56,363 nucleotides of DNA from Sandaracinaceae bacterium (GCA_044220955.1 JBGAQA010000010.1:58100-114462), one strand, 5' to 3'; shown: positions 7,294 to 41,255, counted from the first letter of the stretch. Numbers and translations: made by a program. Notes: generated by a model from the letters alone, not told the origin.

Positions 7294-9561
7294 TCAGAAC
7301 TTGAAGGTGAAGCCGAGGCGGGGATAGATCTGGATGTCCTGGGCGTCGGCGATGAAGCCGCCCAGCACACGGCGCGAGGGTGCCGTCTGGCCGAGGATGC
7401 CCTCGAAGATCACCCACACGCCCCAGTTCCGGTCGACGTTGAACTCGACCGCGCCGCCGAAGCGGGCGCGCGCCATGTCTTGACGTCGCTGCTCGCAGGT
7501 GAGGCCGGTCCCGGCGACGCCCATGGCGGGCGCGCCGGGCGCCGCGTCCGTGCACACGGGGTTGCCCATCGTGCCGCCGGGCTCGTACTCGAGGTACACG
7601 TGCTCGCTGCGCGGGTGGCCCGGGTACTCGTCGCTGGTGATGTCGAGCCCGAGCCAGAGCGTGACCGTCGCGACCGGCTCGAGCAGCAGGCTGACGTCGC
7701 CCTCGAGCGAGAAGAACGCCGTGTTGACGGGGTAGCCCATCTGCTGGGTGTTCGGCAACGCGCAGGGGACGATGTTCTGTTCGTTGTTCGTCCCCATGGG
7801 ACCCGAGCCCGAGCCGATCGCGCCGCACGACCCGGCGCTCTGAAAGCCCGGCCGCGAGAGCGCGACGCTCGGCCCGATGCCGCCGCCGAAGCGGGCCTGC
7901 GCGCCGAGCGCGATCTGGCGGATGACGCGCGCGCCGAAGCGGACGCGGCCCTCGAACTCCGTGAGGCGTCCGAACGAGCGCACGGCGAAGCCCGCGTCGA
8001 AGAGCTCGTGCAGGCCGATGCCGAGGCGCGCCTCGATCAGGTAGGGCCAGCCGAGCGAGGCGTCGATCCACGGGTGGTTGACGGGCGTCGGGAGCGCCGA
8101 GTGCGTGGTCGACGACGCGCTCGCCTGCACGCTGCTGTCGACGAGGTCCGCGTCGATCGTGATGTCACCGCCGCCGAGCTCGACGACGAGCTGCCGGCGG
8201 TAGGTCTCGTGGCCGACGGCCGCGACCGTGATGACGTGGTTGCCGACCGGGATGCGGCCCTCGTAGGGCGCCGGGCCGACCTCGGCGTCGTCGACGCTCA
8301 CCGTCGCGCCGCCCTCGACGGGGTGCTGCAGGGTCACGTGGAGCGCCACGCGCTGCGCGGTCATCGTGACCTCGCGGCTGCAGTCGGCCGCGTCGTCGGT
8401 GCCGGAGGTGTTGTTGCACGTGAACGTGACGTCCTCGTAGCCCTCGGCGCGGACGATGACCGCGTGCGCGCCCGCCGGGACGTCGGCCGCGACGTAAGGC
8501 GCCTGGTGCGCCTCGCCGCCGTCGACGACGACCGTCGCGCCCGTCGCGCCCGTGACCGTGATGCTGACCGGCAGCGGCGGCGCGTTCATGTGCGCGCGCA
8601 CGCTCGTGGTCTGGCCCGCCGTGACGGTGACCTCTTGCTCGAAGGTGTCGTACCCGGGCGCGAGCACCTGGACGACGTAGGTGCCGGCGGCGAGTCCGTC
8701 GCGCGAGTAGACGCCTGCCCCGAGCGAGGTCCCGTTGATGCGGACCTCGGCGCCGGGCGCCTCGGTGATCACCGCGATCGAGCCGGTGGTCGGCGCGGTA
8801 GAGACCGGCCTCACCGTCGCGTGCACCTCTGCGCGCTGGCCCTGCTGGACGAGGATCGTCTGCGTGTAGGGCGGCACGCCCTCGGCGCGGATCTCGATCG
8901 TGTGCGTGCCGATCGGCACGTTGTCGAGGACCGTGGTCGTCGCCATGCCGGTGCTCACGCCGTCGAGGTAGATCGGCGCGCCGCGCACGTCGGCATCGAC
9001 CAGGATGGAGCCGGTGGTCGGGGCCGCGCGCTCGAGCATCGCGGTCACGCGCACGGTCTGTCCGCCCTGGACGTCGACCCACTGCTCGAAGTCGACGAAG
9101 CCCTCGTGCGAGGCGTGGACCTGGTGGCGGCCGGGCGGCAGTGAGTCGACGCGGACCGGCAGGCTGCCGAGGGGAGTTCCGACCGGCTGGCCGTCGATCG
9201 TCACGGACGCGCCACGCGCGCCCTCGTTGCCGGCCGAGACCTCGATCGTGCCGAGCGCGCGCAGCACGGCGCGGAACGTCTCGCGGCGGCGCGCGACGGT
9301 GATCTGCATGCGCGCCTCCTCGAAGTTCGGCATGCGGAAGATCAGGGTGTGGGCGCCCGTCGGGACGCGCGCCGCCGTGATCGGCGTGACGCCGAGCGGA
9401 GTGCCCTCGGGGTTGTCGAGGTACACCGTCGCGCCCGCGGGCTCCGAAACGATGTTCACGGGGATCCCGAGCCGGGTCTGCGCGACCGCGGGCGAGGACC
9501 CGAGCGCGAAGAGCATGAATGCTGCGGCCGCGAGCGTTGTACGAGCGAGCACGTTGCGCAT
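7294..9561 (-). CDS. PEGA-repeat exported protein with probable C-terminal beta-barrel, ~755 aa
   Basis: Signal peptide (..PAVA-Q); repeated SEPAGATVYLD / GAPIYLDG / PGAEVRING PEGA-like units; C-terminus RLGFTFKF; AGAGGGG RBS upstream of ATG 9561. Confidence 0.8.
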   Translation of the reverse strand: MRNVLARTTLAAAAFMLFALGSSPAVAQTRLGIPVNIVSEPAGATVYLDNPEGTPLGVTPITAARVPTGAHTLIFRMPNFEEARMQITVARRRETFRAVLRALGTIEVSAGNEGARGASVTIDGQPVGTPLGSLPVRVDSLPPGRHQVHASHEGFVDFEQWVDVQGGQTVRVTAMLERAAPTTGSILVDADVRGAPIYLDGVSTGMATTTVLDNVPIGTHTIEIRAEGVPPYTQTILVQQGQRAEVHATVRPVSTAPTTGSIAVITEAPGAEVRINGTSLGAGVYSRDGLAAGTYVVQVLAPGYDTFEQEVTVTAGQTTSVRAHMNAPPLPVSITVTGATGATVVVDGGEAHQAPYVAADVPAGAHAVIVRAEGYEDVTFTCNNTSGTDDAADCSREVTMTAQRVALHVTLQHPVEGGATVSVDDAEVGPAPYEGRIPVGNHVITVAAVGHETYRRQLVVELGGGDITIDADLVDSSVQASASSTTHSALPTPVNHPWIDASLGWPYLIEARLGIGLHELFDAGFAVRSFGRLTEFEGRVRFGARVIRQIALGAQARFGGGIGPSVALSRPGFQSAGSCGAIGSGSGPMGTNNEQNIVPCALPNTQQMGYPVNTAFFSLEGDVSLLLEPVATVTLWLGLDITSDEYPGHPRSEHVYLEYEPGGTMGNPVCTDAAPGAPAMGVAGTGLTCEQRRQDMARARFGGAVEFNVDRNWGVWVIFEGILGQTAPSRRVLGGFIADAQDIQIYPRLGFTFKF

Positions 9562-9668
9562 GAAAAGCCCCTCTTTGCGAGTCCCCGGATAGCGCGAACC
9601 TGCCGGGTGCGGCAAGCCGGAACGCCCGGGGCGTCCGCGCTCACGGTGAAGTTCTCCGATTATCGAGC

Positions 9669-10733
9669 CTACTGCTCGCGACGGGCGATACGCCTGGCGA
9701 GCGACGCGAGCAACGCGCGGCCGCGCGGATCGACCGGCGCCGCGTCGAGCGCGTCCAGCGACGCGCGCAGGAGCGCCTCGAGCCGGGTCTCGACGCGGCC
9801 GCGGACGCCCGTGCGTTCCAGCATCTGCATGGCCTCGCGGATCGCGGCTTCCCCTGCGTCTGCGCGGCCGAGGACGCGCGACAGAGGGGCGCGGTCCGCT
9901 TCGGAGAGGCTCGTCTCGGCCTCCCGGACGATCGCCGTGCGCTTGCCGGCCCGCAGGTCGTTGCCCACGGGCTTGCCGGTGAGGGCCGCGTCGCCGAAGG
10001 TGCCGAGCAGATCGTCGCGCACCTGGAACGCCTCGCCGATCGGGACGCCGAAGCGGGCGAGCCCCTCGAGCTGCGCCGCCGTCGCGCCCGCGAGCGTCGC
10101 GCCGAGCGCGAGCGGTCCGTCGACCGTGTAGCTGCCCGTCTTGAGCTGCTGCATCCGCGTCACGTCGGCCGACCCGCGCAGGTCGAGCGCCTGCCCGGCC
10201 ACCACGTCGCGCTGCATGCGCGAGAACACCGCGAGCACCGCGGGCGGGCTCGGCGCGCGCGCCGCGCTCTCGAGCACGAGGTCCCACGCGTACGCGTTGC
10301 CGAGGTCGCCCGCCAGGATCGCGAGCGCGTCGCCGAGGTGCTCCTGACCGACGTCGGCCCGGAGCATCACGTGCACCGAGGGCCCGCCGCGCCGCTCGAG
10401 GTCGCCGTCCATCCAGTCGTCGTGGATCAACAGGTACGACTGCAGCACCTCGAGCGCCGCGCACGCGGCCACGACTTCCGCGAGGCGCGCGTCCGGCCGG
10501 ATCGCGCGCTGGGCCGCCACCATCACCGCGGGGCGTAAGCGCTTGGCCCCGCCGCGCATCGTCAGGTCCTCGAGCCGGGCCACGAGCAGCTCCGCCTCCG
10601 GCGCGCTCGTGCGGAGCTCGGCGCGCCGTGCCGCGAAGAAGGCCGCGAGGTGCGCGTCCGTGGCGTCCCGCACCTCGAGGACGAAGTCCCTCTCGCTCTT
10701 CCCGCTCGCGCCGTCGGCAGGCGTCGTCATCAT
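9669..10733 (-). CDS. Short-chain polyprenyl diphosphate synthase (FPP/GGPP synthase), ~354 aa
   Basis: GGAKRLRP, FARM YLLIHDDWMDGDLERRG (Tyr five residues before DDxxD, indicating short chain), KTGSY, SARM FQVRDDLL; start overlaps the ERG2 stop (TGATG). Confidence 0.9.
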   Translation of the reverse strand: MMTTPADGASGKSERDFVLEVRDATDAHLAAFFAARRAELRTSAPEAELLVARLEDLTMRGGAKRLRPAVMVAAQRAIRPDARLAEVVAACAALEVLQSYLLIHDDWMDGDLERRGGPSVHVMLRADVGQEHLGDALAILAGDLGNAYAWDLVLESAARAPSPPAVLAVFSRMQRDVVAGQALDLRGSADVTRMQQLKTGSYTVDGPLALGATLAGATAAQLEGLARFGVPIGEAFQVRDDLLGTFGDAALTGKPVGNDLRAGKRTAIVREAETSLSEADRAPLSRVLGRADAGEAAIREAMQMLERTGVRGRVETRLEALLRASLDALDAAPVDPRGRALLASLARRIARREQ

Positions 10734-11290
10734 CAGATCTTGCCTCGCATGAGGTTCCCGACCACGGCCTGCCCGTACATGCGGAACGTCTTGGCGACGC
10801 TGCGCGCATCGAGCGTGCTCGTGAAGGAGTCGGCGAGGCCGAAGGGCAGCATCGTCGGGATGATCCCCCGCGCGTACTCGAGCGCGTGGCACTGGCCCGG
10901 CATGCGATAGCCCTTGGCCGTGCCCTGTGGCAGCACGTGCATGTCGCCGGGCTTGTAGACGCTGCGCTGGAGCTGGCCCTCGGCGTAGGCCCACTGCTCG
11001 CCCTCGAGGATGAAGAAGTAGTCCGTCGCGAAGAAGCGCCCGGTGTGCCCCTCCGTGCCGATCGGCGTGCCGAAGATCATCAGGTACTCGGTGATCGACG
11101 AGTGGAGCAACATGAAGTGCCCCATCGCGCCGCCCGCGACGTTGAGCACCCACTCGGGCTTCTCCACGATGTAGTCGCGGTACTCGCCGCGCAGGTCGGC
11201 GTGGATCTCCTCGACCACCAGCTCGATCGGCTGGCCGATGCGGCGCTTCACGATGCGGTGCAGGACCTCGGGATCGAGAACGTGGGACAC
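10733..11290 (-). CDS. ERG2/sigma-1-receptor family C-8 sterol isomerase (no N-terminal TM anchor)
   Basis: WVLNVAGGAMG, LHSSITEYLMIFGTPIGTEGHTG, ALEYARGIIPTMLPFGLAD are hallmark ERG2-family segments. Confidence 0.9.
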   Translation of the reverse strand: MSHVLDPEVLHRIVKRRIGQPIELVVEEIHADLRGEYRDYIVEKPEWVLNVAGGAMGHFMLLHSSITEYLMIFGTPIGTEGHTGRFFATDYFFILEGEQWAYAEGQLQRSVYKPGDMHVLPQGTAKGYRMPGQCHALEYARGIIPTMLPFGLADSFTSTLDARSVAKTFRMYGQAVVGNLMRGKI

Positions 11291-11305
11291 GGCTCACTCC
11301 ATCCT

Positions 11306-14300
11306 TCAGGCGGTTCGGCGCCGGTACGCGCGGTGGTCCGCCAGCGGGTCTTCACGATAGAGCGCGGCGTAGCGCGTTTCGAGCGCCGCGTCGTCCGAGA
11401 CGTGCGTGAGGCACTCGGCGATGAGCGCCTCGACCTCGTCGCGTCGGATCTTCACCGGCTCGCCCGCCACGAACATCGCGTCGTTGCCCCGCGCCATCAC
11501 CAGCGTGCGAGCAGCCATCCAGAGGGGCAGCAAGCAGAAGAGGCGGATGCCGATCTCGGTCTTCGGGATCGCCAGCGCGTAGCGCAGCGCGCCGTCGAGG
11601 CGCTCGCGCGCCAGATCGAAGAGCGGCGCGACCGCCGCGTGCGCGCGGCGACGGTTCTCCGGGAGCGTGAGCTCTTCGATCTCGAGGCCCGCCGCGCCCG
11701 CGCTCGTGCGCGGGATGAAGGACACCTGTCGCGCGCGATCGTCGGTGACGTCCTTGAGGATGTTCACCAGCTGCAAGCCCTCGGCGAAGCTCTCCGCGTC
11801 CTGCCGGAGGCGTCGCTCGAGCAGGTTCGCCGTGCGCTCGTCCATGCCGCCGGCCTTCATCTCGTCGACGAAGAGCTCGGTGAGCATGTGCCCGACGGTC
11901 CCGGCCACGTAGTAGCAGTACCGATCGAGATCGGAGACCGTGTAGAGCGCGAGGATCCCGTCCGGCCCCGGCTCTCGTCGTGTGTAGAGGTCCATGCCGC
12001 GGGCCATCTCGGTGACCCAGCGCGTGCTGATCGTGATCGTGCTCGGCGCCTGCGCGCGGAAGACGCGCATCACGGTCGGCATCGCGCGCGCGAGCCCCAG
12101 CTCGGCGTCGTCGCCCGGCACGGGCTCGAGCGCCGCCGCGAGGTCCGCGGGGTCGCGGCCCGACTCCATGATCTCGAGGAACGTACGGAACAGACCGCCG
12201 CGCAGGTGCGCGCCGACGCTCGGGTGGTCCTCGATGGTGTCGGCGACGCGGCAGAGCAGGTAGCCGAGGGTGACCGCGACCTCGAGGCGGCCGGGCAGCA
12301 TCGCGATCGGCCGCGAGAAGGTGCGCGAGACCTGCTCGAGCGCGGTCTTGCAGAAGGCCCAGTCGGCGGCGTCGATCTGGAGCGGCGCGCTGCTCGGACG
12401 CTCGGCGGGCCGCGGGCCGCCGGCCTGCGCGTGCCGCCGCTGTCGCGCGCTCGCTGGACGGCCCGCGCGGTGGGCCTCGTACGCCGCGAACGCCTCCACG
12501 ATCTCGGCGTTCTCGCGCCAGGTCAGGCCTTCCGGAGCGAGCGTCGAGAGCGCGCGGGCGGCCGCGAGACGCACGGCCTCCGCCGGGACGCTGGCGCGAC
12601 AGAGCGCGGTGAGCACCGCCGCGGTGGTGCCGAGCGCATCACCGTCGTCGCCGTCGTGGAAGAAGCCGTCGTCGGAGGCGCGCTTCTCGAGCCACTTCGT
12701 CGCGCGCCGCACCGCGGGGTCGCCCGGGTTCGCCTCGGCGGCGACCAGCGCCTCCATCGCCTGCGCCGTCGCGATCACGGAGCCCTCGAAGGAGCCGTCG
12801 TCGCCCTGGCGGCTGCGCACGAACGTGGCTGCGCGCGCGAGCGGCGCCTCGAGGTCGGCGTCGGTCGCGTCGGGGCGGCGTCGGACGACCGCGTCGAGCG
12901 CGCGGCACGCGAGCATCGTCGCGAACAGGCTCGCGTCCGGCGCGTCCGTGGTCGGCGCGAACCCGCCGCCGCTGCGCTCGGCGGCGAGCAGCGTGCGGAT
13001 CGCGTCGGTGAGCCCGCTGATGGGCGTCTCGGCCCACGCGGCGCCGTCGAGGAGCAGCACGAGCAGGCCCGCGAGCGCTTCCGTCTCGACCGGCGAGCCT
13101 GCCTCGAAGAGGCGCGGGAAGCCCTCGAGGGCCAGGCGCCGGCGACCGATCGTCATCCGCGCGGCGATCGCGGGGCGCATCGAGCGCGCCGTGATCGCAC
13201 GCATCATCCGGATCGCCGGGATCGCGAGTCGACGATCGGGGATCGTCCCCATCTGCTGCGCGATTCGCTCCAGCTCGACCACGAGCGCGTCCGTGCCGCG
13301 CGCGAGGACCGGCTCGAGCGCGACGTCGGCGTCGCTGCGCCGCTCGCTGCTCGAATCGGGCTTGGGCGCGTCGAGGTCGGCGCCGACGAGCGCAGCGAGC
13401 GCCGGGATCGGGTGGAAGGGCGAGCTCTCCGCGCGATAGCGCTCGCGCAGGCGCGAGGGCACGAGCATCGCGGCGGGCCACTGCATCCAGCCGGCGAGCC
13501 CCGCGAGCTGCTGCGGTAGACGGTGCATCGCGCCGGTCCTGGCCGACGTCGAGGTCGTGTCCGAGAGCGCGCGTCCGGCCATCCGCACGAACGCGCTCGA
13601 GAACGTGCGCTTGCGCAGATCCTGCGAGGCGAGGATCGACATCGTCCGGCGACGCTCGTCCTCGCTCTCGCGGAGCGTCTCGAACATCGCGCGCCGGAGC
13701 TGGACGGCGCTCTCGTCCTCGCGGCGGAAGCAGTGGTAGAGCGCGCTGCTCAGCACCTCGGGCACGTAGGCGCGCCGGCGCTCCGCGTACTCCTCGAGCG
13801 AGCGCGCCTCGACGAGCGCCTCGGCGTCGAGGAAGCCGAGCGTCATCCCGTTCGCCGTCATCGGGTGGACGTGGCCCACGGCGTCGCCCACGAGGGCGAC
13901 CTGCGCACGCCCGGGCGCCGCCTCTCGACCGAAGTGCGCGCGCGGCCGGAAGCGATTCGCGGCCCACCCCGCGAGCCCGCGCTCGACGGCCGCGCGGAAC
14001 GCCGCCTTCATCGAGGGAGGGAGCACGGGCGCGAACGCGTCCCACACGAACGCGGGCGCGCGGGCGCCGGCGCCGTAGGAGACGGGCAGATCGAGGCAGC
14101 CGCGCACGACGTCGTCCGCGATACGGTAGAAGAGCGCGGGGCCGGGACCGCCGAGCACGACGTGGCCGAAGCCTTCGCTCGGCAGGGTGACGCCCCGCAG
14201 CTCGACCGACGCCATGTACGAGAGCAGCGTGCCGTGATCGGCGATGCCGAGCCGCTCGCGCACCGTGGACGCGCGGCCGTCGGCGCCGACGATGCGCTCC

Positions 14301-14743
14301 GCTCGCACGTCGAGCGCGCCGCCCTCCTTGCGCTCGATCCGGACGACGTGGCCGTCGACGTCCTTCACGCGTGCGTGAGGCAGCCAGTCGATGCCCGACG
14401 TCGCCGTCACGGCAGCGCGGAGCGCCGCGACGATCCCGGCGTGCTCGCACGCGAGCGCCGTGCCCTCGGCGTAGGGCATCTCGATGCCGGGCGAGCCGTC
14501 GTCGGGGAGGATGACGAAGCCGTAGCCGGTGCGCGCGTGCGAGGCCTCGAGGCGGCCGATGCGGAGCCGGTCGAGCACCCCGACGGCGGGCGGATGCAGC
14601 CACTCGCCGGCGAAGCGCGTCGACACCTTCGGGTCGGCCTCGACGAGCAGCACCGATGCGCCACGTCGCGCGAACGCGACCGCGCAGACCGAGCCGACCG
14701 GGCCGCCCCCGGAGATCACCACGTCATAACCGCGTCGAATCAT
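11306..14743 (-). CDS. Fusion: squalene epoxidase-like FAD monooxygenase + degenerate triterpene-cyclase barrel repeats + squalene synthase
   Basis: N-terminal: GGGPVG, AGEWLHP, GADGRAS, VGDAVGHVHPMTANGMT. Middle: QW-like repeats (RSRQGDDGSF, KRASDDGFF) with no DCTAE or DxDD. C-terminal: VSRTF, CRVADTIED, YCYYVAGTVG, LQLVNILKD, FCLLP, VKIRR. Confidence 0.88.
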   Translation of the reverse strand: MIRRGYDVVISGGGPVGSVCAVAFARRGASVLLVEADPKVSTRFAGEWLHPPAVGVLDRLRIGRLEASHARTGYGFVILPDDGSPGIEMPYAEGTALACEHAGIVAALRAAVTATSGIDWLPHARVKDVDGHVVRIERKEGGALDVRAERIVGADGRASTVRERLGIADHGTLLSYMASVELRGVTLPSEGFGHVVLGGPGPALFYRIADDVVRGCLDLPVSYGAGARAPAFVWDAFAPVLPPSMKAAFRAAVERGLAGWAANRFRPRAHFGREAAPGRAQVALVGDAVGHVHPMTANGMTLGFLDAEALVEARSLEEYAERRRAYVPEVLSSALYHCFRREDESAVQLRRAMFETLRESEDERRRTMSILASQDLRKRTFSSAFVRMAGRALSDTTSTSARTGAMHRLPQQLAGLAGWMQWPAAMLVPSRLRERYRAESSPFHPIPALAALVGADLDAPKPDSSSERRSDADVALEPVLARGTDALVVELERIAQQMGTIPDRRLAIPAIRMMRAITARSMRPAIAARMTIGRRRLALEGFPRLFEAGSPVETEALAGLLVLLLDGAAWAETPISGLTDAIRTLLAAERSGGGFAPTTDAPDASLFATMLACRALDAVVRRRPDATDADLEAPLARAATFVRSRQGDDGSFEGSVIATAQAMEALVAAEANPGDPAVRRATKWLEKRASDDGFFHDGDDGDALGTTAAVLTALCRASVPAEAVRLAAARALSTLAPEGLTWRENAEIVEAFAAYEAHRAGRPASARQRRHAQAGGPRPAERPSSAPLQIDAADWAFCKTALEQVSRTFSRPIAMLPGRLEVAVTLGYLLCRVADTIEDHPSVGAHLRGGLFRTFLEIMESGRDPADLAAALEPVPGDDAELGLARAMPTVMRVFRAQAPSTITISTRWVTEMARGMDLYTRREPGPDGILALYTVSDLDRYCYYVAGTVGHMLTELFVDEMKAGGMDERTANLLERRLRQDAESFAEGLQLVNILKDVTDDRARQVSFIPRTSAGAAGLEIEELTLPENRRRAHAAVAPLFDLARERLDGALRYALAIPKTEIGIRLFCLLPLWMAARTLVMARGNDAMFVAGEPVKIRRDEVEALIAECLTHVSDDAALETRYAALYREDPLADHRAYRRRTA

Positions 14744-14917
14744 GGGGTCACTCCACGGGTAGCCAAATCATCGAAATCGTTGCCATCCGGCGGCCAAGTG
14801 CGCGATTCGTCTCCGGGTCACTGCGGGCGTCCAGAAACACGGCTCCCCGTGCGAATCGCGCACCTTGCCGCCAGTTCTCCATCGTTTCAGCCAGTTGCGT
14901 GGGCATGGAGTGACCCC
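14744..14917 (-). promoter_or_regulatory. Structured intergenic element with nested inverted repeats; the outer stem covers the RBS of the epoxidase/squalene synthase gene
   Basis: GGGGTCACTCCA (14744-14755) / TGGAGTGACCCC (14906-14917); inner GTGCGCGATTCG (14798-14809) / CGAATCGCGCAC (14852-14863); hairpin CACGG-CTCC-CCGTG (14838-14851). Confidence 0.6.
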
Positions 14918-14918
14918 G

Positions 14919-15995
14919 TCAGTAGAGGAAGGGGATCATCTTGAAGGTGGCGCGCTTGCAGTACTCGTCCCAGAGCGCGCCGTACTTCTCGCGACAGCGC
15001 CTGTCGTCGCGCCAGGCACGGTGGGTGAGAAGGCAGAGCAGCCAGACCGGAAGTAGATAAGGCACCATCGAGTGCGTGCCCGAGAGCAGCGTGAAGGACC
15101 AATAGACCAGGATCTCACCCGTGTAGTTGAGCTTGCGGCCGATTCCCCAGAAGCCCGATACCAGGATGCGGCCGCCGAGCGTCTCGGCGGGCTTGCCCCA
15201 GATGCGGATCGAGGGATTGCGCTTGAACTCGTCCTTCTGCTGGTTGGCGCCCCGGAACATCCAGAGCCCGGCCGCGAACATCACGGGCAGCGCGAGGGTG
15301 GCGAACGTGGAGAGCGGCTCGGTGCGGTCGAGCAGGTACCAGCCGACCACCGAGTACGCGAAAGGGACGAACGCGAGGTCGCCCCACACGAGCATGAAGC
15401 CGAATCGCTCGGCGACGATGTCCCACGTGTAGAGCATCCCGTACTCGAACTGGAAGTAGTTGAAGACGTAGATCGCCGTGAAGGCCTGATAGAGGATCAT
15501 CGCGGTCGACAGCTCTCCGTCGCGCTCCCACTGCACCACCGCGAACGATGCGTTGATGACGAGCAGGCCGATGAGCGAGGGGCGATAGGCCCACATCTTG
15601 AGATCGACCCCGAGCAGCTCCGGGTTGAGCTCCACGCCGTACCAGAGGTCGGCGAACAGGCCCTCGCGCACGGCGTCCTTCCGACCGCGCCCCGAGAAGT
15701 AGAGCCAGGCGGTCAGCGCGATCGAGATCGCGTTGGCCGCGACGAAGAGCGCGAGGATCGTCCTCGGCACGACGCTGAGCGAGAAGAGGCCGAGCAGCTG
15801 CCCGCCGCCGAGGCACGCCACGGTGATCCCGAGGATGGGCAGCCCGTTGAGCCGGTACGCGCGGCGCGAGCCGTCGGCGAGCGGCGCGCCCTGCCGGACC
15901 GGCCCGGGTACGACGAGCGAGAGCACGAACATCGCCAGGACGAAGCCGAGCGCGAGGGCGGAGCCGACGAGGAGCGAGTGCGGGTCGAGCGACAT
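14919..15995 (-). CDS. ERG4/ERG24-family sterol reductase (Delta14 / Delta7 / LBR-like)
   Basis: Multi-TM protein; GVELNP, DLKMW..RP, DIVAERFGFMLVWGDLAFVPFAY, GFWGIGRKLNYTGE, LLTHRAWRDDRRCREKYG..W..YC. Confidence 0.92.
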   Translation of the reverse strand: MSLDPHSLLVGSALALGFVLAMFVLSLVVPGPVRQGAPLADGSRRAYRLNGLPILGITVACLGGGQLLGLFSLSVVPRTILALFVAANAISIALTAWLYFSGRGRKDAVREGLFADLWYGVELNPELLGVDLKMWAYRPSLIGLLVINASFAVVQWERDGELSTAMILYQAFTAIYVFNYFQFEYGMLYTWDIVAERFGFMLVWGDLAFVPFAYSVVGWYLLDRTEPLSTFATLALPVMFAAGLWMFRGANQQKDEFKRNPSIRIWGKPAETLGGRILVSGFWGIGRKLNYTGEILVYWSFTLLSGTHSMVPYLLPVWLLCLLTHRAWRDDRRCREKYGALWDEYCKRATFKMIPFLY

Positions 15996-16010: not shown

Positions 16011-19000
16011 TCAGTGCCAGGTCGGCTGCGGCGGCGAGGGGCTCGTCCCGGCGCTCTCCGTCCGTGTCTTGCGGCGCGCCTCGTAAGCGCCCAGCGCCCA
16101 GACCGGGAAGTAGCGGCGATAGAGGACGTAGTCGAGCAGCGCCGTGTGGAAGAAGACCCCTTCCGGATCCTGCTTCGGCCACGTTCCGTCGTCGCTCTGG
16201 CGCTTGGCGAGGAACGAAGCCGCGCGGGTCATCGCCGCGAAGTCGGGCTCGTGCGCGTCGGCCAGCGTCAGCAGAGCCCACGCCGTCTGCGTGGTCTGGC
16301 TCTCGGTGTGCTCGACGTATCGGCCGACCTCGCCGCTCGAGAAGTGCTCGCCCCAGCCGCCGTCGGGGCGCTGCCGCGCGAGCAGCCAGGCGCAGGCGCG
16401 ACGGATCGCCGGGTCGTGCGGCGGGACGCCCGCGTGGATCAGGCCGCGCACGCCGAACATCGTCCCGTAGACGAAGTGGACGCCCCACGCGCCCTCCCAC
16501 GATCCGTCGGCGCGCTGCTGCGAGCGCAGGCAGCGCACGCCGCGGGCGATCGCCCGGGCGATCTCGGCCGAGAGGACGCCCGGGTGCTCGCGGCCGAAGC
16601 GCGCGAGCGCGGCGATGCACGACGCGGTGCATTCGGAGTAGGACTTCTCGGTCATCGAGTCGCCGAACATCTCGGCCGGGTTGAGCCACTCGAGCGGGAG
16701 ATCGACGCGTCGCGACTCGTAGCTGCCGAAGCCGCCGTCCGAGTTCTGCGTGCGCAGGATGAAGCGGACGCCGGCGCTGAGCGCCTCGATCGACGCGCCG
16801 CCACCGCGCGCGGCGAGCGGCGCGGCGTCCATCCGGGCCAGGAGCGCCTCGGCCGTGCAGTCGCTCACCGGCCAGCCGTGCCAGACGCCCGCGAAGCAGT
16901 AGCCGCCGGCGGGATCGATGCGGTGGTGCTGCGCCTCGCGCCCGGTGCCACGCTGGATCTGCTGGGATGCGAGGAACTCGTCGGCGCGCAGCAACGCGCT
17001 CTTGACGTCGACGTGGGGCGCGGCTGCGGCGAGCGCCTGGCCCGCGAACGCCGTGTCCCACGTCGCACTGCGCGCTCCCGCGACGCGCGCTCCCTTCTCG
17101 GCGTCCTCCCAGATCCACCCGTCGAAGTGCTCGAGCGCCTCGAGCAGGTCGGGGTCGGAGGGATCGGCGGCGTGGAGCGCGACCATGTTCAGGAGCCCGC
17201 TCACCGGCGAGAGGCAGGTGTAGTGGGTGCTGCGCAGCTCGTAGCGGATGTTCTCGCGCAGGTTGGCGAGCAGCCCGGCGCGCTTGTCGGGCGAGCGCAG
17301 CGTCTCGAAGCGCACGAGCCCTGCGTAGATCGCCGCGAGCGGCTTGCTCCACGGCGTCAGCAGATCGGCGGCGCGCAGGGACGTCCGCGCGCTCGAGAAG
17401 TCGACCTTGTCGTAGCCGCCGGGGAAGAGCTCGTCGCGCAGCTCGAGGACGCGCGGCGTGAGCGGCGCGGAGAAGCGAGATCCCGACACCGTCGCCATGG
17501 CCATGTAGATGAGGCGCGTGTGGCAGTAGTAGCGGCTCGGGTGTGCGGGCAGCCACTCGGGCAAGAGCCACGCCTCGGGCGGCACGGGGCTGACGCCGTT
17601 CCACTCGTAGAGGCCGGCGATCGCGAGCCAGAGCTTGCCCCAGCTCGGCACCTGCGCCGCGCCGCCCTCGGCTCGGATGAACTCGTAGGCGCGCGCGAGG
17701 AGCGGGTCGTGCTTCTCCACGCCGAGCAGGCGCGCCGCGACGTACACGAGGATCGTCACGAAGAGGTAGGGCTTGCTGAGCTCGTGCAGACCCCAGCTGC
17801 CGGCCGCCAGCCGCGTGTCCTCGAAGTGGCGCAGCAGGTTGGCCCGCCGCTCGCTCGCGAGCGGGCGTCCCATCGCGTACATCGCCAGCACGTACTGCGC
17901 GGCGAGCATCGGGCACCACACGACCTCGCCCTCGAACGAGCCGTCCTCGGCTTGCTCGGCGACGAGCGCGCGGACGCTCTTGTCGAGCGCGCGCTCGATC
18001 GCGCCGCGCGAGTCGCGCCGATCCGGGATGAGCGCCACGGCGGCGCCGCCGCCTCGCGTGGAGCGCAGGAACGCGCCGTAGCGCTCCTCGACCGAGGGAC
18101 CCTGCGCGCGCGCGGCGAGTCGGCGCTCGGCGACGGCGGAGAGAGCGTCGGTGAGGTGGTAGGTGCCCGCGAGCAGGGTCCCGAGGCGAACGCCGACGTC
18201 CGCGAGCGCGGCGGCGGTCTCGCGCGGGGAGGGCCCGAGGGCTCCGCGCCGCAGCAGCTGGTTGCCGCCGTAGAGCACGGTGCCGAGGAACGACCCGGCG
18301 AGGCGCGCGCGGCCCCCCTCGCCCACGAGGAACCCCATCGTGCGGAGGCGCTCGCCCGGGTGCTTGCGGAAGAGGTGGTAGACGGCCTGCCGCACGGCCA
18401 CGGTCGACTCGGCGTGATCGGCGAACACCTCGTAGAGCGCGATCGCGAGCATCTCGGGGATGCGCGCACGCGCGACGCGCTCGCGCCGGTAGGCCGCGAC
18501 GCTCTCGGCCTTCGCGAGCGCGATGGCGTCCTCGAAGCCGAGCGTGAGACCGAGCGCGGTGAGCGGGTGGTGCGCGCCGATTGCGTCACCGACGAGCGCG
18601 AGGCCTTCACGGCCGAACTCGCAGCGGGGGTGGATGACGTTGTCGGTCGAGCGCCACTCCTTGCTCGCGAGCGTCCGCGCGAGCGCGGCGCCGAGCTCGC
18701 CCGGCAACACCGAGCGGTACGTGTCGGAGAGCACCTGAGACGCTGCGCCGGGATCGCGCGGGAGGGCCGTCGAGAGCGGCACGTCGAGCGTCAACCGCAC
18801 GGCGCGGGGCCCGATGCGGTGCGCGATCACCGGTCCGGGGGCGCCGACGAACACGTGGCGGTAGCCCTCGAAGGGGAGCGCCACGTCCTCCAGCAAGAGG
18901 CCGATCGCGCGTGAGAACACGTGCGTGCTCGCGCCCCCACCGATGGACGTCACGCTCACCTCGCTCGCGCGATCGAGCGTGCCGCGTCCCGTCGCGCCGA

Positions 19001-19472
19001 CGACCAGCTCGGCGTGCACGGAGTGAATGCCCGCGGTGCGTCGCTCGGGCCGCTCCACCTCGAAGGTGACGACCTGCCCGTCGATCCGGTGCACCCGCGC
19101 CCAGCTCACGAGCTCGACGCTCGCGCGCGCCTCGACGTGCGCACGCAGCGTCTCGACGAGCAGGGCGTGCTCGCACGCGAGCCCGGCCTTGCCCGTCGGA
19201 TACGGCAGCACGATCGCTTCCGAGCCGTCTTCGGGGTGGATCGTGAATCCGCGGCCCGTCGCGTAGGGCACGGCGGGCGCGAGGTCGACGCCGAGCCCAT
19301 CGAGGATCGACACGGCGTTCGGGTGCAGCCACTCGCCCGCGAGGCGATCCGACGCACGTGGGTCCGACTCGAGCACGAGCACGCGCTTGCCCTGGTGAGC
19401 GAACGCGAGCGCGGCGACGCAGCCCACCGGGCCCGCACCACAGATCACGACGTCGTAGCGTGCCGCGCTCAT
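16011..19472 (-). CDS. osc: Squalene epoxidase-like domain fused to oxidosqualene cyclase
   Basis: N-terminal GAGPVG, AGEWLHP, VGDAIGAHHPLT. Cyclase: PSWGKLWLA..GLYEW, PPEAWLLP, catalytic VSDCTAE (DCTAE at 16848-16862), WLNPAEMFG, QW repeats QNSDGGF, QRADGSW, QRPDGGWGE, QSDDGTW. Confidence 0.95.
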   Translation of the reverse strand: MSAARYDVVICGAGPVGCVAALAFAHQGKRVLVLESDPRASDRLAGEWLHPNAVSILDGLGVDLAPAVPYATGRGFTIHPEDGSEAIVLPYPTGKAGLACEHALLVETLRAHVEARASVELVSWARVHRIDGQVVTFEVERPERRTAGIHSVHAELVVGATGRGTLDRASEVSVTSIGGGASTHVFSRAIGLLLEDVALPFEGYRHVFVGAPGPVIAHRIGPRAVRLTLDVPLSTALPRDPGAASQVLSDTYRSVLPGELGAALARTLASKEWRSTDNVIHPRCEFGREGLALVGDAIGAHHPLTALGLTLGFEDAIALAKAESVAAYRRERVARARIPEMLAIALYEVFADHAESTVAVRQAVYHLFRKHPGERLRTMGFLVGEGGRARLAGSFLGTVLYGGNQLLRRGALGPSPRETAAALADVGVRLGTLLAGTYHLTDALSAVAERRLAARAQGPSVEERYGAFLRSTRGGGAAVALIPDRRDSRGAIERALDKSVRALVAEQAEDGSFEGEVVWCPMLAAQYVLAMYAMGRPLASERRANLLRHFEDTRLAAGSWGLHELSKPYLFVTILVYVAARLLGVEKHDPLLARAYEFIRAEGGAAQVPSWGKLWLAIAGLYEWNGVSPVPPEAWLLPEWLPAHPSRYYCHTRLIYMAMATVSGSRFSAPLTPRVLELRDELFPGGYDKVDFSSARTSLRAADLLTPWSKPLAAIYAGLVRFETLRSPDKRAGLLANLRENIRYELRSTHYTCLSPVSGLLNMVALHAADPSDPDLLEALEHFDGWIWEDAEKGARVAGARSATWDTAFAGQALAAAAPHVDVKSALLRADEFLASQQIQRGTGREAQHHRIDPAGGYCFAGVWHGWPVSDCTAEALLARMDAAPLAARGGGASIEALSAGVRFILRTQNSDGGFGSYESRRVDLPLEWLNPAEMFGDSMTEKSYSECTASCIAALARFGREHPGVLSAEIARAIARGVRCLRSQQRADGSWEGAWGVHFVYGTMFGVRGLIHAGVPPHDPAIRRACAWLLARQRPDGGWGEHFSSGEVGRYVEHTESQTTQTAWALLTLADAHEPDFAAMTRAASFLAKRQSDDGTWPKQDPEGVFFHTALLDYVLYRRYFPVWALGAYEARRKTRTESAGTSPSPPQPTWH

Positions 19473-19485
19473 GGGGTCTCGCTGC

Positions 19486-20643
19486 TCAGAGGGCGGCCAT
19501 GAGCTTGGCCGTCACCGACTTCATCGCCGGCTGCTCCGACGCCTTGATCATCCAGTCGAGCGCGTCGGTGCGGATGAGCCGCCGGAAGACGCCGCCGCCG
19601 AGGAACGAGAGGCGGAAGGCCTTGTTGCAGCGCTTCTCGTACTCGCGGAACGCCTGCGGCTCGCGCATGCGTCCGCCGAGCACGTCGGCGATCGCCTCCG
19701 CGCCGAGCATCCCCGACTTCATGCCCTGGTAGATGCCCTCCGCCGTCGCCGGGTGCGTCATCAGCCCCGACTCGCCGACGACGACGGCGCCGGGGCGCGT
19801 CAGCTTCTCGATCTCGTACGACCAGAAGACGGGGTGACCCTTCCAGCCGCCGAGCTGCGTCGCGCCCTTCAGCCGCTCCGCGTAGTGGACGTCGAGGAAC
19901 CTCTGGAACAGCTCGCGGGCGTTCTTCCGGGCGGGAGCGCCCGACGTGGCCGCGCCGATCTTGCCTGCGCCCTCGGGATCCTCGTAGCAGATGCCGATGT
20001 TGACGCGCGTGTCGCTCTCCGGGAAGAGCCAGCCGTAGTACGGCTCCACCATCCGATCGAAGATCATCTCGACGTGGCCGGGCCGGAACGGGACCCCGTC
20101 CCACCAGCCCATGATCGCCTGGATGACGCGCTTGGGTCGCTGCTCTGGCAGGCCCACGCGGCAGTGAGAGCCGCCCGCGATGATCGTGAAGCGTGCATGG
20201 ATCTGCCGGCCATCGCGGGCGCGAATGCCGGCGATCCGGCCCTGGTCCGTGATCACGTCGCTCGCGTCGAAGTTCGGCACGAACTCGGTGCCACGCGCGA
20301 TCGCCTTCTTGAGCAGGATGTGATCGAGGATGCGGCGCTGGCAGACGACCGCGTCGGCGACGTCACCGGCGGACTGCCAGCTGTCGAGGCCGCCGGGCGT
20401 GACGATGCGGATGCCGGTGATGCGGTACGAGTGCGGCTCGACCTCGCTCCACACGCCGAGCTTCTTGAGCGTGTCGATGCCGCGGGGCGAGATGCCGCTG
20501 CCGCACGTCTTGTCGCGGGGGAAGTCGTGACGGTCGACGAGGACGATCCTGCCCACTCCGAGCGATCCGAGGTGGGCGGCCGCGGCCGTCCCCGCGGGGC
20601 CCGCGCCGAGGATCACGACGTCGGCCTGGGTCGTGGAGGTCAT
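19486..20643 (-). CDS. Geranylgeranyl-reductase-family FAD-dependent oxidoreductase
   Basis: GAGPAG, FPRDKTCGSGI, YGWLFP...VNIG, VVGESGLMTHPATAEGIYQGMKSG. Confidence 0.85.
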   Translation of the reverse strand: MTSTTQADVVILGAGPAGTAAAAHLGSLGVGRIVLVDRHDFPRDKTCGSGISPRGIDTLKKLGVWSEVEPHSYRITGIRIVTPGGLDSWQSAGDVADAVVCQRRILDHILLKKAIARGTEFVPNFDASDVITDQGRIAGIRARDGRQIHARFTIIAGGSHCRVGLPEQRPKRVIQAIMGWWDGVPFRPGHVEMIFDRMVEPYYGWLFPESDTRVNIGICYEDPEGAGKIGAATSGAPARKNARELFQRFLDVHYAERLKGATQLGGWKGHPVFWSYEIEKLTRPGAVVVGESGLMTHPATAEGIYQGMKSGMLGAEAIADVLGGRMREPQAFREYEKRCNKAFRLSFLGGGVFRRLIRTDALDWMIKASEQPAMKSVTAKLMAAL

Positions 20644-23379: not shown

Positions 23380-23383
<4 letters not shown>

Positions 23384-24477
23384 GCTCGTCCCCGCAGATC
23401 GATGACGCGCACGTCGCGCAGCCCCGCGATCGTCGTCACGCCGGTGCAGAAGCAGATCACCCGGAGCTCGTAGAGGATCGCGTCGAGCGCGCGCGCCACC
23501 GCCTCTTCGCTCTCGTGCGCGGGCCCGAGCAGGGGCGCCGCGAGCGCCACCGCGTCGGCCCCCAGCGCGAGCGCGACGGCCACGTCCATGCCGGTGCGGA
23601 TCCCGCCGGACGCGATCACCGCGCGCTCGCGGAACACCGCACGCACGGTCCGGAGCGAGTCGGCGGTCGGCACACCGAACCCCGCGAGCCTGCGCCCGAC
23701 CTCGGCGTGGACGCTCTCGTCGGCGGCGCGGTGGGCCTCCACGTGCGCCCACGACGTGCCGCCGACGCCGGCGACCTCGACGCCGGCGAGCCCGATCCCG
23801 GCGAGCTTCTTGGCCGTGCGCTCCGAGATCCCGGAGCCGACCTCCTTCGCGAGGACGGGGAAGGGCAGCGCGCGGACCACGTCGCGCATGCGCTCGACGA
23901 GCCCCGAGAAGCGTGTGTCGCCCTCGGGCTGGATCGCCTCCTGCAGCGGATTGAGGTGGAAGAAGAGCGCGTCGGCCGAGACCGCGCGGATCATCGCCTC
24001 GAGGTCCGCGCGGGTGACGCCGTAGTTGAGCTGCACGGCGCCGACGTTGCCGACGAGCAGCGGGAGCGAGGGCGCCACGCGTCGCACCGCGAACGTCGGC
24101 GCCAGCTCCGGCCGCAGCAGCATCGCGCGCTGGGAGCCGAGCGCCATGCCGATGCCCGCCCTCCCGGCGGCGCGCGCGAGGCGGGCGTTGACACCCTCGG
24201 ACCGCTCCGAGCCACCGGTCATGGCGCCCACGATCAGCGGCGCCGCGAGCCGCTTTCCGAGCAGCGTCGTCGCGAGATCGACGTCGGCGAGGTCGACCTC
24301 GGGCAGCGCGTCGTACTCGAGCGTGTACCGCCCGAGACCCAGGGCGGGGCCGCGCGAGCCCACGTCCCGAGAGAGCACGACGTCGAGGTGGTGGTCCTTG
24401 CGAGACGACACGATCGCGCCCTCGCGCTCTCGCGCGCGCGTGCCGCTCGTTCCCAGGACTCCCACCTCGTCCGTCAT
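23380..24477 (-). CDS. fni: Type 2 (FMN-dependent) isopentenyl-diphosphate delta-isomerase, ~365 aa
   Basis: RKDHH, GAMTGG, GSQR, HLNPLQE..QPEGD, KEVGSG, GGTSW, ASGGIR; GGGAG RBS before ATG 24477. Confidence 0.93.
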
Positions 24478-24838
24478 CACCACTCCCGAAAAGGGGCGGC
24501 ACGCTACCCAAAACGTCTCGACGTGTCGAATCGATGTCCAGAGTCCGCGCAGGACCCCATGATTTCGGCCGAAACCACGGGGTGCAATGTTGCACGGACG
24601 CGCCGTCCGACTCGGCACCTCGTCACCAGGTCCACAACAATTGAGCGCGGACAACCGTTGTCTCGACAACGAGGTTGGGACCTGCTTTGTCGCGCAAACG
24701 TTGCCTCGACAAGAGATCGCGCCGCGCCGCGCGCGGGACCGGCGACCGGCTCGGGCCGGGGCGCCGGGAGAGCGGGCGCACGCCGCGCGCCGTGGATCCT
24801 GGCCGCTCGGCCGAATGATCCCATACTGCCACCGCCGT
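24478..24838. promoter_or_regulatory. Divergent promoter region of the sterol operon and the GMC gene, with several palindromes
   Basis: AT-richer than the flanks; TCGAC-GT-GTCGA (24518-24529), GTGCAA-TG-TTGCAC (24582-24595), GACAAC-C-GTTGTC (24650-24662). Confidence 0.5.
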
Positions 24839-41217: not shown

Positions 41218-41255
41218 CCCCTGGCATCATACCGGTCTTTTCGCGTAACGTGGAG

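Follow-up and report, generated by a model that had tools for sequence, protein, structure and literature searches.

A gene joining squalene epoxidase-type and squalene synthase-type domains through a cyclase-like barrel in a sterol operon of an uncultured Sandaracinaceae bacterium

The sequence analysed here, below called the window, is a stretch of 56,363 nucleotides from a metagenome-assembled genome (MAG) of a Sandaracinaceae bacterium (GCA_044220955.1, JBGAQA010000010.1:58100-114462). On its minus strand, at 11306..14743, it carries the gene of a fusion protein, P0001, whose single uninterrupted open reading frame (ORF) of 1145 codons runs from an ATG at 14743 to a stop at 11306. The protein (1145 aa) starts with MIRRGYDVVISGGGPVG, its relatives beginning alike, and comprises a squalene epoxidase (SE) part, residues 1-450, a 12-helix alpha/alpha barrel, residues ca. 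475-760, and a squalene synthase (SQS) domain, residues 792-1145, joined by two disordered linkers. Pfam recognises PF08491 (65.8 bits, cut-off 20.1) together with FAD_binding_3 in residues 6-374, and PF00494 (SQS_PSY; 138.4 bits, cut-off 26) in residues 803-1101, and the NCBIfam assignment agrees with this. In the full-length model (predicted local distance difference test score, pLDDT, 86.2; predicted template modelling score, pTM, 0.63) there are three well-folded domains on two flexible tethers, and no membrane-spanning helix was found anywhere in the protein. The domain borders given in an earlier note on this DNA, made from the sequence alone, lie within about five residues of the present ones (for the barrel, 12470-13330 there and 12464-13321 here).

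The G+C content in the window varies from 69% to 76% and long chance ORFs are abundant, but a third-position G+C content (GC3) of 0.94 against 0.54 at the second position, a composition resembling that of other real genes of the window, shows that the fusion ORF is not one of the chance long ORFs of 72% G+C DNA. Its continuity was checked with Logan contigs from four other runs aligned to positions 11200-14900, and none of these independent contigs has an indel in the gene. A 3256-base contig (run X2, record 12) spans 11740-14900 with four substitutions and no gaps, and a 2015-base contig from a different study (run X3, record 19) spans 11874-13888 with seven substitutions and no gaps, so both domain junctions are confirmed in independent assemblies. 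Contig joints and loose ends were considered as deletions and rejected, having only 20-23 letters on the shorter side in metagenome contigs; they are taken as chance overlaps with other organisms. The search with the whole protein gave 204 matches, of which the best 120 were listed. These are 1060-1266 aa long, with identity down to 44%; every one of the 120 matches the SE as well as the SQS family of Pfam, and for 109 the alignment covers 96% or more of the query. Those with a named source are from Sandaracinus amylolyticus, Cystobacter fuscus, Sandaracinaceae, Polyangiales, and Myxococcaceae, and identity to the nearest database proteins is 81-85%. The one continuous frame claimed in the earlier note is thus backed by the ORF itself, its GC3, the full-length relatives, and independent assemblies whose contigs cross both junctions without indels.

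The SE catalytic domain occupies residues 1-380 (13604..14743, minus strand; PF08491 and PF01494, the latter with 62.3 bits against a cut-off of 22) and has its FAD motifs GGGPVG at residue 12, RFAGEW at 43, GADG at 153, and GDAVGH at 286. It is followed by a C-terminal helical tail, residues 381-450 (13394..13603, minus strand), with the motif WMQWPAA..VP, which is helical in both models and kept even in relatives that have only a short linker and no barrel. A profile (A1) was made from 31 fusion proteins hand-picked for spread from the 120 listed matches; in these sequences the tail residues W422, P423, A425, R437, P445, and P447 are invariant. Among solved structures the profile matches human squalene monooxygenase SQLE (6c6n) with E 1e-39 over 350 profile positions. 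Conservation was assessed on 60 aligned SE domains, i.e., the two SEs of the window and every ORF of the fetched loci in which the SE match spans 330 residues or more, at 76 reference columns, each at least 94% conserved in the 50 SE domains not fused to oxidosqualene cyclase (OSC), including those of Methyloceanibacter and Fischerella. P0001 keeps all 76, among them the family-conserved GxGxxG, R..GE..HP, the DG motif, and GD..H.HP.T..G. With these columns and the match to human SQLE, the earlier description of the epoxidase as intact-looking stands.

The second SE of the window belongs to an SE-OSC fusion, P0002 (1153 aa; 16011..19472, minus strand), which scores 726 bits with TIGR03463, also matches PF08491, and has DCTAE at residue 871. 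Of the 76 columns, 68 are kept and eight changed in its SE domain. In four other genomes where an SE-barrel-SQS gene is likewise present, the SE fused to OSC keeps only 53-60, and GxGxxG is altered in two of the four; as the reference columns come from the non-OSC domains, these counts put the OSC-fused set at a disadvantage. The loss is not a property of the OSC-fused clade as such, since the OSC-fused SE of locus L063, which lies beside a stand-alone SQS with no other SE seen in the locus, keeps 74 columns. The OSC-fused SE may, to judge from these columns, be becoming a non-enzymatic module. In a quick maximum-likelihood tree the two SEs of the window fall into different, separately supported clades (SH-aLRT 94 and 95) and are therefore old paralogues; a recent duplication of one from the other was rejected on the same ground. 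In the genomes of C. fuscus (G001) and of two Polyangiales/Polyangiaceae MAGs (G003, G004) the sole PF08491 match lies in the orthologue of the fusion, and in an Archangium MAG (G002) the SE of the orthologue is the stronger of two matches (79.5 and 28.2 bits). C. fuscus produces squalene and cycloartenol (Wei et al. 2016, PMC4919349, Table 3), so its sole, orthologous SE must work there. This is the strongest indirect support that the SE of P0001 works; it would be expected to epoxidise squalene with a reductase partner.

The SQS domain, residues 792-1145 (11306..12370, minus strand), carries SRTF at residue 806, DTIED at 835, YCYY at 942, DVTDD at 998, FCLLP at 1069, and VKIRR at 1097; the four motifs listed in the earlier note (SRTF, DTIED, FCLLP, and VKIRR) are all among them. 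In the alignment to human SQS these face, respectively, the SRSF flap, DTLED, YCHY, DYLED, FCAIP, and VKIRK, and the Asp-rich residues D835, E838, D839, D998, D1001, and D1002 are invariant in the 31 sequences. The FC..P and VKIR stretches serve the second half-reaction of squalene synthase, and the domain would accordingly be a candidate for the NADPH-dependent reduction of presqualene diphosphate. The Sqs subfamily has DTxxD instead of DDxxD as its signature (Santana-Molina et al. 2020, PMC7306690); here the first motif is of this type and the second Asp-rich motif is present as well. The A1 profile finds 7wgh (1e-34), human 3vj8 (9e-23), and the trypanosomal enzyme (ca. 1e-22) among solved squalene synthases. 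TIGR01559 is the best NCBIfam model with 107.8 bits, ahead of HpnD (45.3), HpnC (38.2), and CrtB (38.1), yet far below its curated equivalog cut-off of 286.75, so the domain is called SQS-type and not a certified equivalog. The best model, the DTxxD motif, and the best solved matches agree with the earlier assignment to the one-enzyme SQS type rather than to CrtB or HpnC/D. No C-terminal membrane helix was found in the domain, its hydropathy maximum of 1.6 being located in core helices.

Between the two enzyme domains lies the barrel, residues ca. 475-760 (12464..13321, minus strand), an (alpha/alpha)6 barrel with three QW-like repeats resembling a cyclase beta domain. It was modelled with AlphaFold2 (AF2) on residues 381-800 from an alignment of 20 of the 27 SE...SQS linker regions extracted, near-duplicates (L005, L020, L054) and short forms (L015, L029, L031, L051, L059) being excluded and the window row added. 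The mean pLDDT is 80; in the core (475-760), which is made up of 12 helices, most values lie at 85-97, with block means of 73-97. Foldseek ranks human OSC highest, along with two cyclase-like single-domain proteins of 345 aa from C. fuscus and Archangium gephyra. With VIA-align the model gives Z 25.9 with squalene-hopene cyclase (SHC; 2sqc; 269 residues, 3.1 A), 25.5 with human OSC (1w6k; 280 residues, 19% identity), about 24 with drimenyl diphosphate synthase, 23.4-23.7 with 8pak and 8paj, and 20.9 with MstE. Z values of 20-22 are also obtained with (alpha/alpha)6 barrels that are unrelated, such as those of cellobiose 2-epimerase and GH105, so the fold alone is not diagnostic of cyclase kinship. 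The sequence, too, was compared: hhalign of the linker alignment with residues 872-1141 of the OSC of P0002 gives a probability of 98.6% and E 5e-16, in an alignment that begins one residue after the catalytic Asp, just past DCTAE, and a hidden Markov model (HMM) search of solved structures with the barrel finds SHC (1.7e-20) and human OSC residues 458-691 (4.7e-18). This homology makes the barrel a complete beta-type domain of a class II triterpene cyclase lacking the gamma domain; the middle region holds one 12-helix barrel of about 290 residues and not the two-barrel beta-gamma architecture. The Pfam cyclase domains stay below their cut-offs here (18.5 and 16.1 bits against 26.1 and 26.2, residues 632-695), and precomputed PF13243 or PF13249 matches are present in some relatives. 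In the first three helices there is a separate conserved motif (PD...; AARMT.GRRRLA) for which cyclases have no equivalent, and over the last two thirds most invariant residues are structural ones of the QW repeats (GGF, DGS, RRA). A recent duplication of the adjacent OSC was rejected as the origin of the barrel, since identity is 28-33% and the barrel is also present where the OSC is unfused or non-adjacent.

No DxDD, DxD(D/E), or DCT/DCTAE motif is conserved in the barrel among the 31 sequences; such motifs occur sporadically in five of them, at three different positions. HMMER aligns human D455 with P551, a column with Pro in 25 of the 31, and hhalign, extrapolated by one residue, aligns the catalytic Asp of OSC with E555. 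Column 556 is His in seven sequences, one of which has an acid at column 555. According to the hhalign alignment the barrel also lacks OSC loops, namely the GxWGxxF stretch ('WGVHF') and about 16 residues after GGF. From this it is inferred that the barrel is catalytically dead.

Selection was estimated from Nei-Gojobori dN/dS in comparison with L003 and L004, the closest relatives; synonymous sites being constrained at a GC3 of 0.94, only the ranking of the values counts. It is lowest in SE (0.17-0.19), followed by SQS (0.27-0.28) and the barrel (0.28-0.31, its overall range being 0.28-0.48), and highest in the two linkers (0.48-0.94). Both linkers have a pLDDT below 50 in the full-length model: linker 1, residues 456-472 (13328..13378, minus strand), with dN/dS of 0.63-1.2 measured over residues 451-474, and linker 2, residues 773-788 (12380..12427, minus strand), with 0.48-0.87 over residues 761-795, both against L003, L004, and L006. 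The barrel, ranking below the linkers, is thus a selected, folded domain and not decaying filler. The earlier note had been right in seeing a cyclase-like middle region without DCTAE or DxDD, as the SHC/OSC-type fold and the hhalign match to the neighbouring OSC also show, and it went wrong in calling the region a remnant: the 12-helix domain is complete and under purifying selection.

P0001 is part of a sterol operon, tightly packed on the minus strand, in which the genes follow in transcription order: a geranylgeranyl reductase (GGR)-like protein, the SE-OSC fusion, ERG24, the SE-barrel-SQS gene, ERG2, and a farnesyl diphosphate (FPP) synthase. At its head lies the GGR-like FAD_binding_3 protein (385 aa; 19486-20643, minus strand), which could be the orthologue of the geranylgeranyl reductase homologue reported as sterol C-24 reductase in Sandaracinus and Minicystis (preprint 10.1101/2024.11.01.621555). 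An ERG4/ERG24-type sterol reductase (14919..15995, minus strand; PF01222, 251.7 bits) separates the two fusion genes. The gene of an ERG2/sigma-1-receptor-type protein of the sterol C-8 isomerase family (10733..11290, minus strand; PF04622, 243 bits) begins 15 nt downstream of the stop of the fusion gene and is followed by that of a polyprenyl (farnesyl) diphosphate synthase (9669..10700, minus strand; PF00348, 155 bits; start codon not fixed), which is the likely supplier of FPP; a polyprenyl diphosphate synthase gene is also downstream of the fusion in relatives L004-L006. The operon is flanked by a large protein with five PEGA domains (7294-9600, minus strand), directly downstream of the prenyl synthase, and, just upstream, by a protein with an FMN-dependent dehydrogenase domain (23383-24669, minus strand), which might be a type-2 isopentenyl diphosphate isomerase, and by a 743-aa GMC oxidoreductase (24587-26815, plus strand), which might be a sterol oxidase. 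A Ser/Thr kinase with a C-terminal PEGA domain is encoded at 38785-41226.

The host MAG comprises 7.5 Mb in 301 contigs and is 88% complete. A genome search finds two SE-domain matches, which lie in the two fusions, and one full cyclase together with a weak match to the barrel. The sole other SQS_PSY gene is CrtB-like (NF045921, 310 bits), which leaves the SQS domain of P0001 as the only squalene synthase candidate found in the 88%-complete MAG.

The three-part architecture is widespread in public data, and myxobacteria commonly carry the fusion. Gene arrangements were read in 67 fetched loci. The full three-part gene lies beside an SE-OSC fusion in seven (two more have the upstream gene cut by the contig end) and is followed by a stand-alone OSC in four, including those of C. 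fuscus and Archangium. SE and SQS are joined by only 96-216 residues, the barrel being missing, in five loci, and by a shortened or reduced QW-type middle in 11, ten with about 300-330 residues and one (L016) with 445. Separate adjacent SE and SQS genes are found in 11 loci, with three more cut at the contig end, and a stand-alone SQS followed by an SE-OSC fusion in two. Stop codons between the domains, which according to the earlier note would have spoken against the fusion, are thus seen only in distant relatives without the barrel and leave the fusion described here unaffected. In L016 (9821-11155) near-identical repeats rich in Gly, Pro, Ser, and Glu (GGEP, GSEP, and similar) flank the reduced QW barrel. 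Two loci have the gene broken into two overlapping frames, in C. fuscus strain NCWS (L007:9725-13482) inside linker 1 and in L011 (9022-14009) between the barrel and SQS; these breaks are either sequencing errors or real splits at flexible linkers, and another C. fuscus record, P0042 (1163 aa), is intact. In two Candidatus Binatia MAGs (L034:9980-11950, L036:9989-11986) SQS and polyprenyl synthase domains share one frame of 657-666 codons, which may be another natural fusion, of SQS with its substrate supplier.

A search of 1.84 billion representatives with a barrel-only HMM (A3, from 11 full-barrel rows) found 19 proteins at E up to 1e-30. Among the strongest matches, those in a single stretch to most of the profile lie in proteins of fusion length or in fragments, and most other listed matches are multi-stretch matches to QW repeats. 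In the family to which the window belongs, 29 of 32 genomes (28 of 31 without the unpublished G431), 11 of 12 genera, and 20 of the 22 high-quality genomes have a large open frame that contains the barrel. Across the phylum it was found in at least 4 of 401 sampled genomes (E up to 1e-25), a lower bound and not a measure of absence, five candidates per genome having been scored.

P0001 is probably a bifunctional enzyme converting FPP via squalene into 2,3-oxidosqualene, with a non-catalytic barrel between its active domains. Domain identity, motifs, fold, selection, operon, and distribution were computed, and from these we infer the two activities, the product, and the role of the barrel. FPP from the prenyl synthase of the operon would enter the C-terminal SQS domain, which would couple two molecules into presqualene diphosphate and reduce it with NADPH to squalene; the FAD-dependent N-terminal SE domain would then form 2,3-oxidosqualene. 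The latter would be consumed by the OSC of P0002, encoded two genes upstream, which would cyclise it, and the ERG24- and ERG2-type enzymes and others would continue the pathway. The barrel has a class II triterpene cyclase beta domain as its ancestor, has lost the gamma domain, the acid motif, and the active-site loops, and most likely performs no chemistry, being a folded and selected module of about 290 residues on two flexible linkers. It may set the geometry of both enzymes at the membrane surface or hold squalene between them. The helical tail of human SE binds the membrane, and fusion to SE plausibly keeps SQS, which has no membrane-spanning helix, at the membrane surface. A more specific role, which seems rather unlikely, would make the barrel a built-in holder receiving squalene from the synthase and passing it to the epoxidase, or a contact piece of a three-enzyme assembly leading from FPP to protosterol. 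Soluble carrier proteins stimulate the mammalian epoxidase, and a holder of this kind would be their covalently attached counterpart.

Several observations weigh against the bifunctional reading with an inert barrel. The TIGR01559 score lies below its cut-off, as said above, and the pTM of the full-length model leaves the mutual packing of the domains unfixed. At the critical helix the HMMER and hhalign registers differ by about one helical turn (3-4 residues), and in most sequences an acid directly precedes an invariant L-A (D or E in 14 of 31 at column 555 and in 14 of 31 at column 556). The barrel is selected almost as strongly as SQS and therefore does something specific. Finally, the separate, shortened, and barrel-less forms among relatives mean that neither the fusion nor the barrel is needed for the pathway, and both are optional in evolution.

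The acid beside L-A and the low dN/dS would also suit a working single-domain class II cyclase of the MstE kind, which would make P0001 trifunctional or let it form a by-product out of squalene, oxidosqualene, or some other prenyl compound. Such cyclases do match the model (MstE and the 345-aa 8pak and 8paj, with the Z values given above), and the Atlas clusters that come nearest consist of small proteins (282-322 aa) with a SQHop_cyclase_C domain only; generic (alpha/alpha)6 barrels, however, score nearly as high. An active cyclase is made very improbable by the want of a conserved acid motif, the sporadic ones being scattered over three positions, by the His at column 556, accompanied by an acid at 555 in a single sequence, by the deletion of the OSC active-site loops, by the structural nature of most invariant residues (DGS and RRA of the QW repeats), and by the repeated shortening or loss of the barrel. 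Docking of the OSC, or of the neighbouring SE-OSC fusion, onto the barrel, so that FPP would be turned into protosterol in one three-enzyme assembly, is likewise improbable, if less so. The barrel is homologous to the OSC beta domain, and the OSC gene lies close by not only in the window but also in 13 full-barrel relatives (L003-L007, L009-L014, L017, L052), where it is adjacent or separated only by ERG24; the 53-68 columns kept by OSC-fused SEs where both fusions coexist would fit a contact role. The OSC is, however, also next door in the barrel-less relatives L015, L051, and L059, and no OSC beta-domain match (E up to 1e-20) is listed in the complete genomes G429 and G430 of genus g264. A complex prediction for the barrel (A3) and the OSC domain of P0002 (A4) scored 0.00 in two runs, which speaks neither for nor against binding. 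The least probable reading leaves only one end domain active, e.g., an active SQS with a pseudo-enzyme SE, epoxidation being left to the OSC-fused SE, or the reverse. With two SE domains in the genome, from two old clades, one could be redundant, but the SE of P0001 is the better conserved of the two and has the lowest dN/dS of the three domains, no SE besides that of its orthologue is present in the genomes of C. fuscus, G003, and G004, and apart from the SQS domain of P0001 the MAG yielded no SQS-type gene.

SQS and SE catalyse consecutive, membrane-bound, rate-controlling steps of sterol synthesis, and their intermediate, squalene, is insoluble in water. A single chain carrying both domains without membrane-spanning helices offers a simple system for studying the passage of squalene and could be a compact part for triterpenoid engineering. 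The better-conserved SE in the family of the window is the SQS-fused and not the cyclase-fused one, and this matters for tallies of myxobacterial sterol genes and for arguments on a bacterial origin of eukaryotic sterol synthesis. With the barrel, the class II cyclase superfamily, in which the order of domain gain and loss is debated (PMC12324236), would gain a beta-only member that is not an enzyme. Were it a squalene holder or contact piece, it would provide a natural substrate hand-over at the first oxygen-dependent sterol step and a living gamma-less cyclase beta domain bearing on the origin of two-domain cyclases. The pathway chemistry as known is unchanged by the finding.

Both enzymes are known, and the family is present in databases under generic names ('FAD-dependent oxidoreductase' or 'squalene/phytoene synthase family protein'); what is undescribed is the architecture, especially a whole, selected, motif-less beta barrel between two enzymes. 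No description of the SE-SQS fusion or its barrel was found in the open literature on bacterial sterol and squalene synthesis, including the main texts of PMC8237579, PMC7306690, PMC4919349, 10.1101/2024.11.01.621555, PMC10152446, and PMC12324236, though supplements may list it. Wei et al. 2016 (PMC4919349) give SE locus tags for C. fuscus, Stigmatella, and Corallococcus with no mention of a fusion in the main text, tags that may be those of the fusion genes, and for the PDB entries 8pak and 8paj no relevant paper was found in the literature.

Compared with squalene synthase (human FDFT1, 3vj8/1ezf; 7wgh; TIGR01559), the SQS domain of P0001 has the same fold and aligns in DTxxD and DxxDD, SRxF, YCxY, FC..P, and VKIR, but its identity is low, its score is below the TIGR01559 cut-off, it has no C-terminal membrane helix, and it sits at the C-terminus of a 1145-aa fusion. 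With human SQLE (6c6n) P0001 shares the FAD-binding and SE domains and the conserved columns; it lacks the N-terminal regulatory or membrane region, and its helical tail continues into the linker, barrel, and SQS. SE-OSC fusions have already been published (MsbE, PMC7074536) and, encoded in a bacterial sterol cluster, likewise combine SE naturally with a second enzyme of early sterol synthesis. They join SE to the next enzyme, a complete, motif-bearing OSC, whereas P0001 joins it to the preceding one, SQS, via a motif-less barrel, and the two SE domains belong to different clades. The barrel has in common with the beta domain of SHC (2sqc) and OSC (1w6k) the (alpha/alpha)6 fold with QW-type repeats, and differs in the absence of the gamma domain, DxDD/DCTAE, and the active-site loops and in the motif of its first three helices. 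MstE (6sbb), 8pak, and 8paj are likewise beta-only barrels of about 300 residues. These enzymes are free-standing, and MstE carries a DxD motif (PMC12324236) as well as the catalytic Asp D109 (PDB entry titles), while the barrel of P0001 is internal and has no conserved acid motif. The same three-part architecture is found in two cultured myxobacteria, both of them proven producers of sterols, in P0018 of S. amylolyticus (1143 aa, 57% identity), an organism reported to make cholesterol (preprint 10.1101/2024.11.01.621555), and in P0042 of C. fuscus (50% identity); the gene of the window differs from these orthologues in coming from an uncultured relative and in sharing its operon with an SE-OSC fusion.

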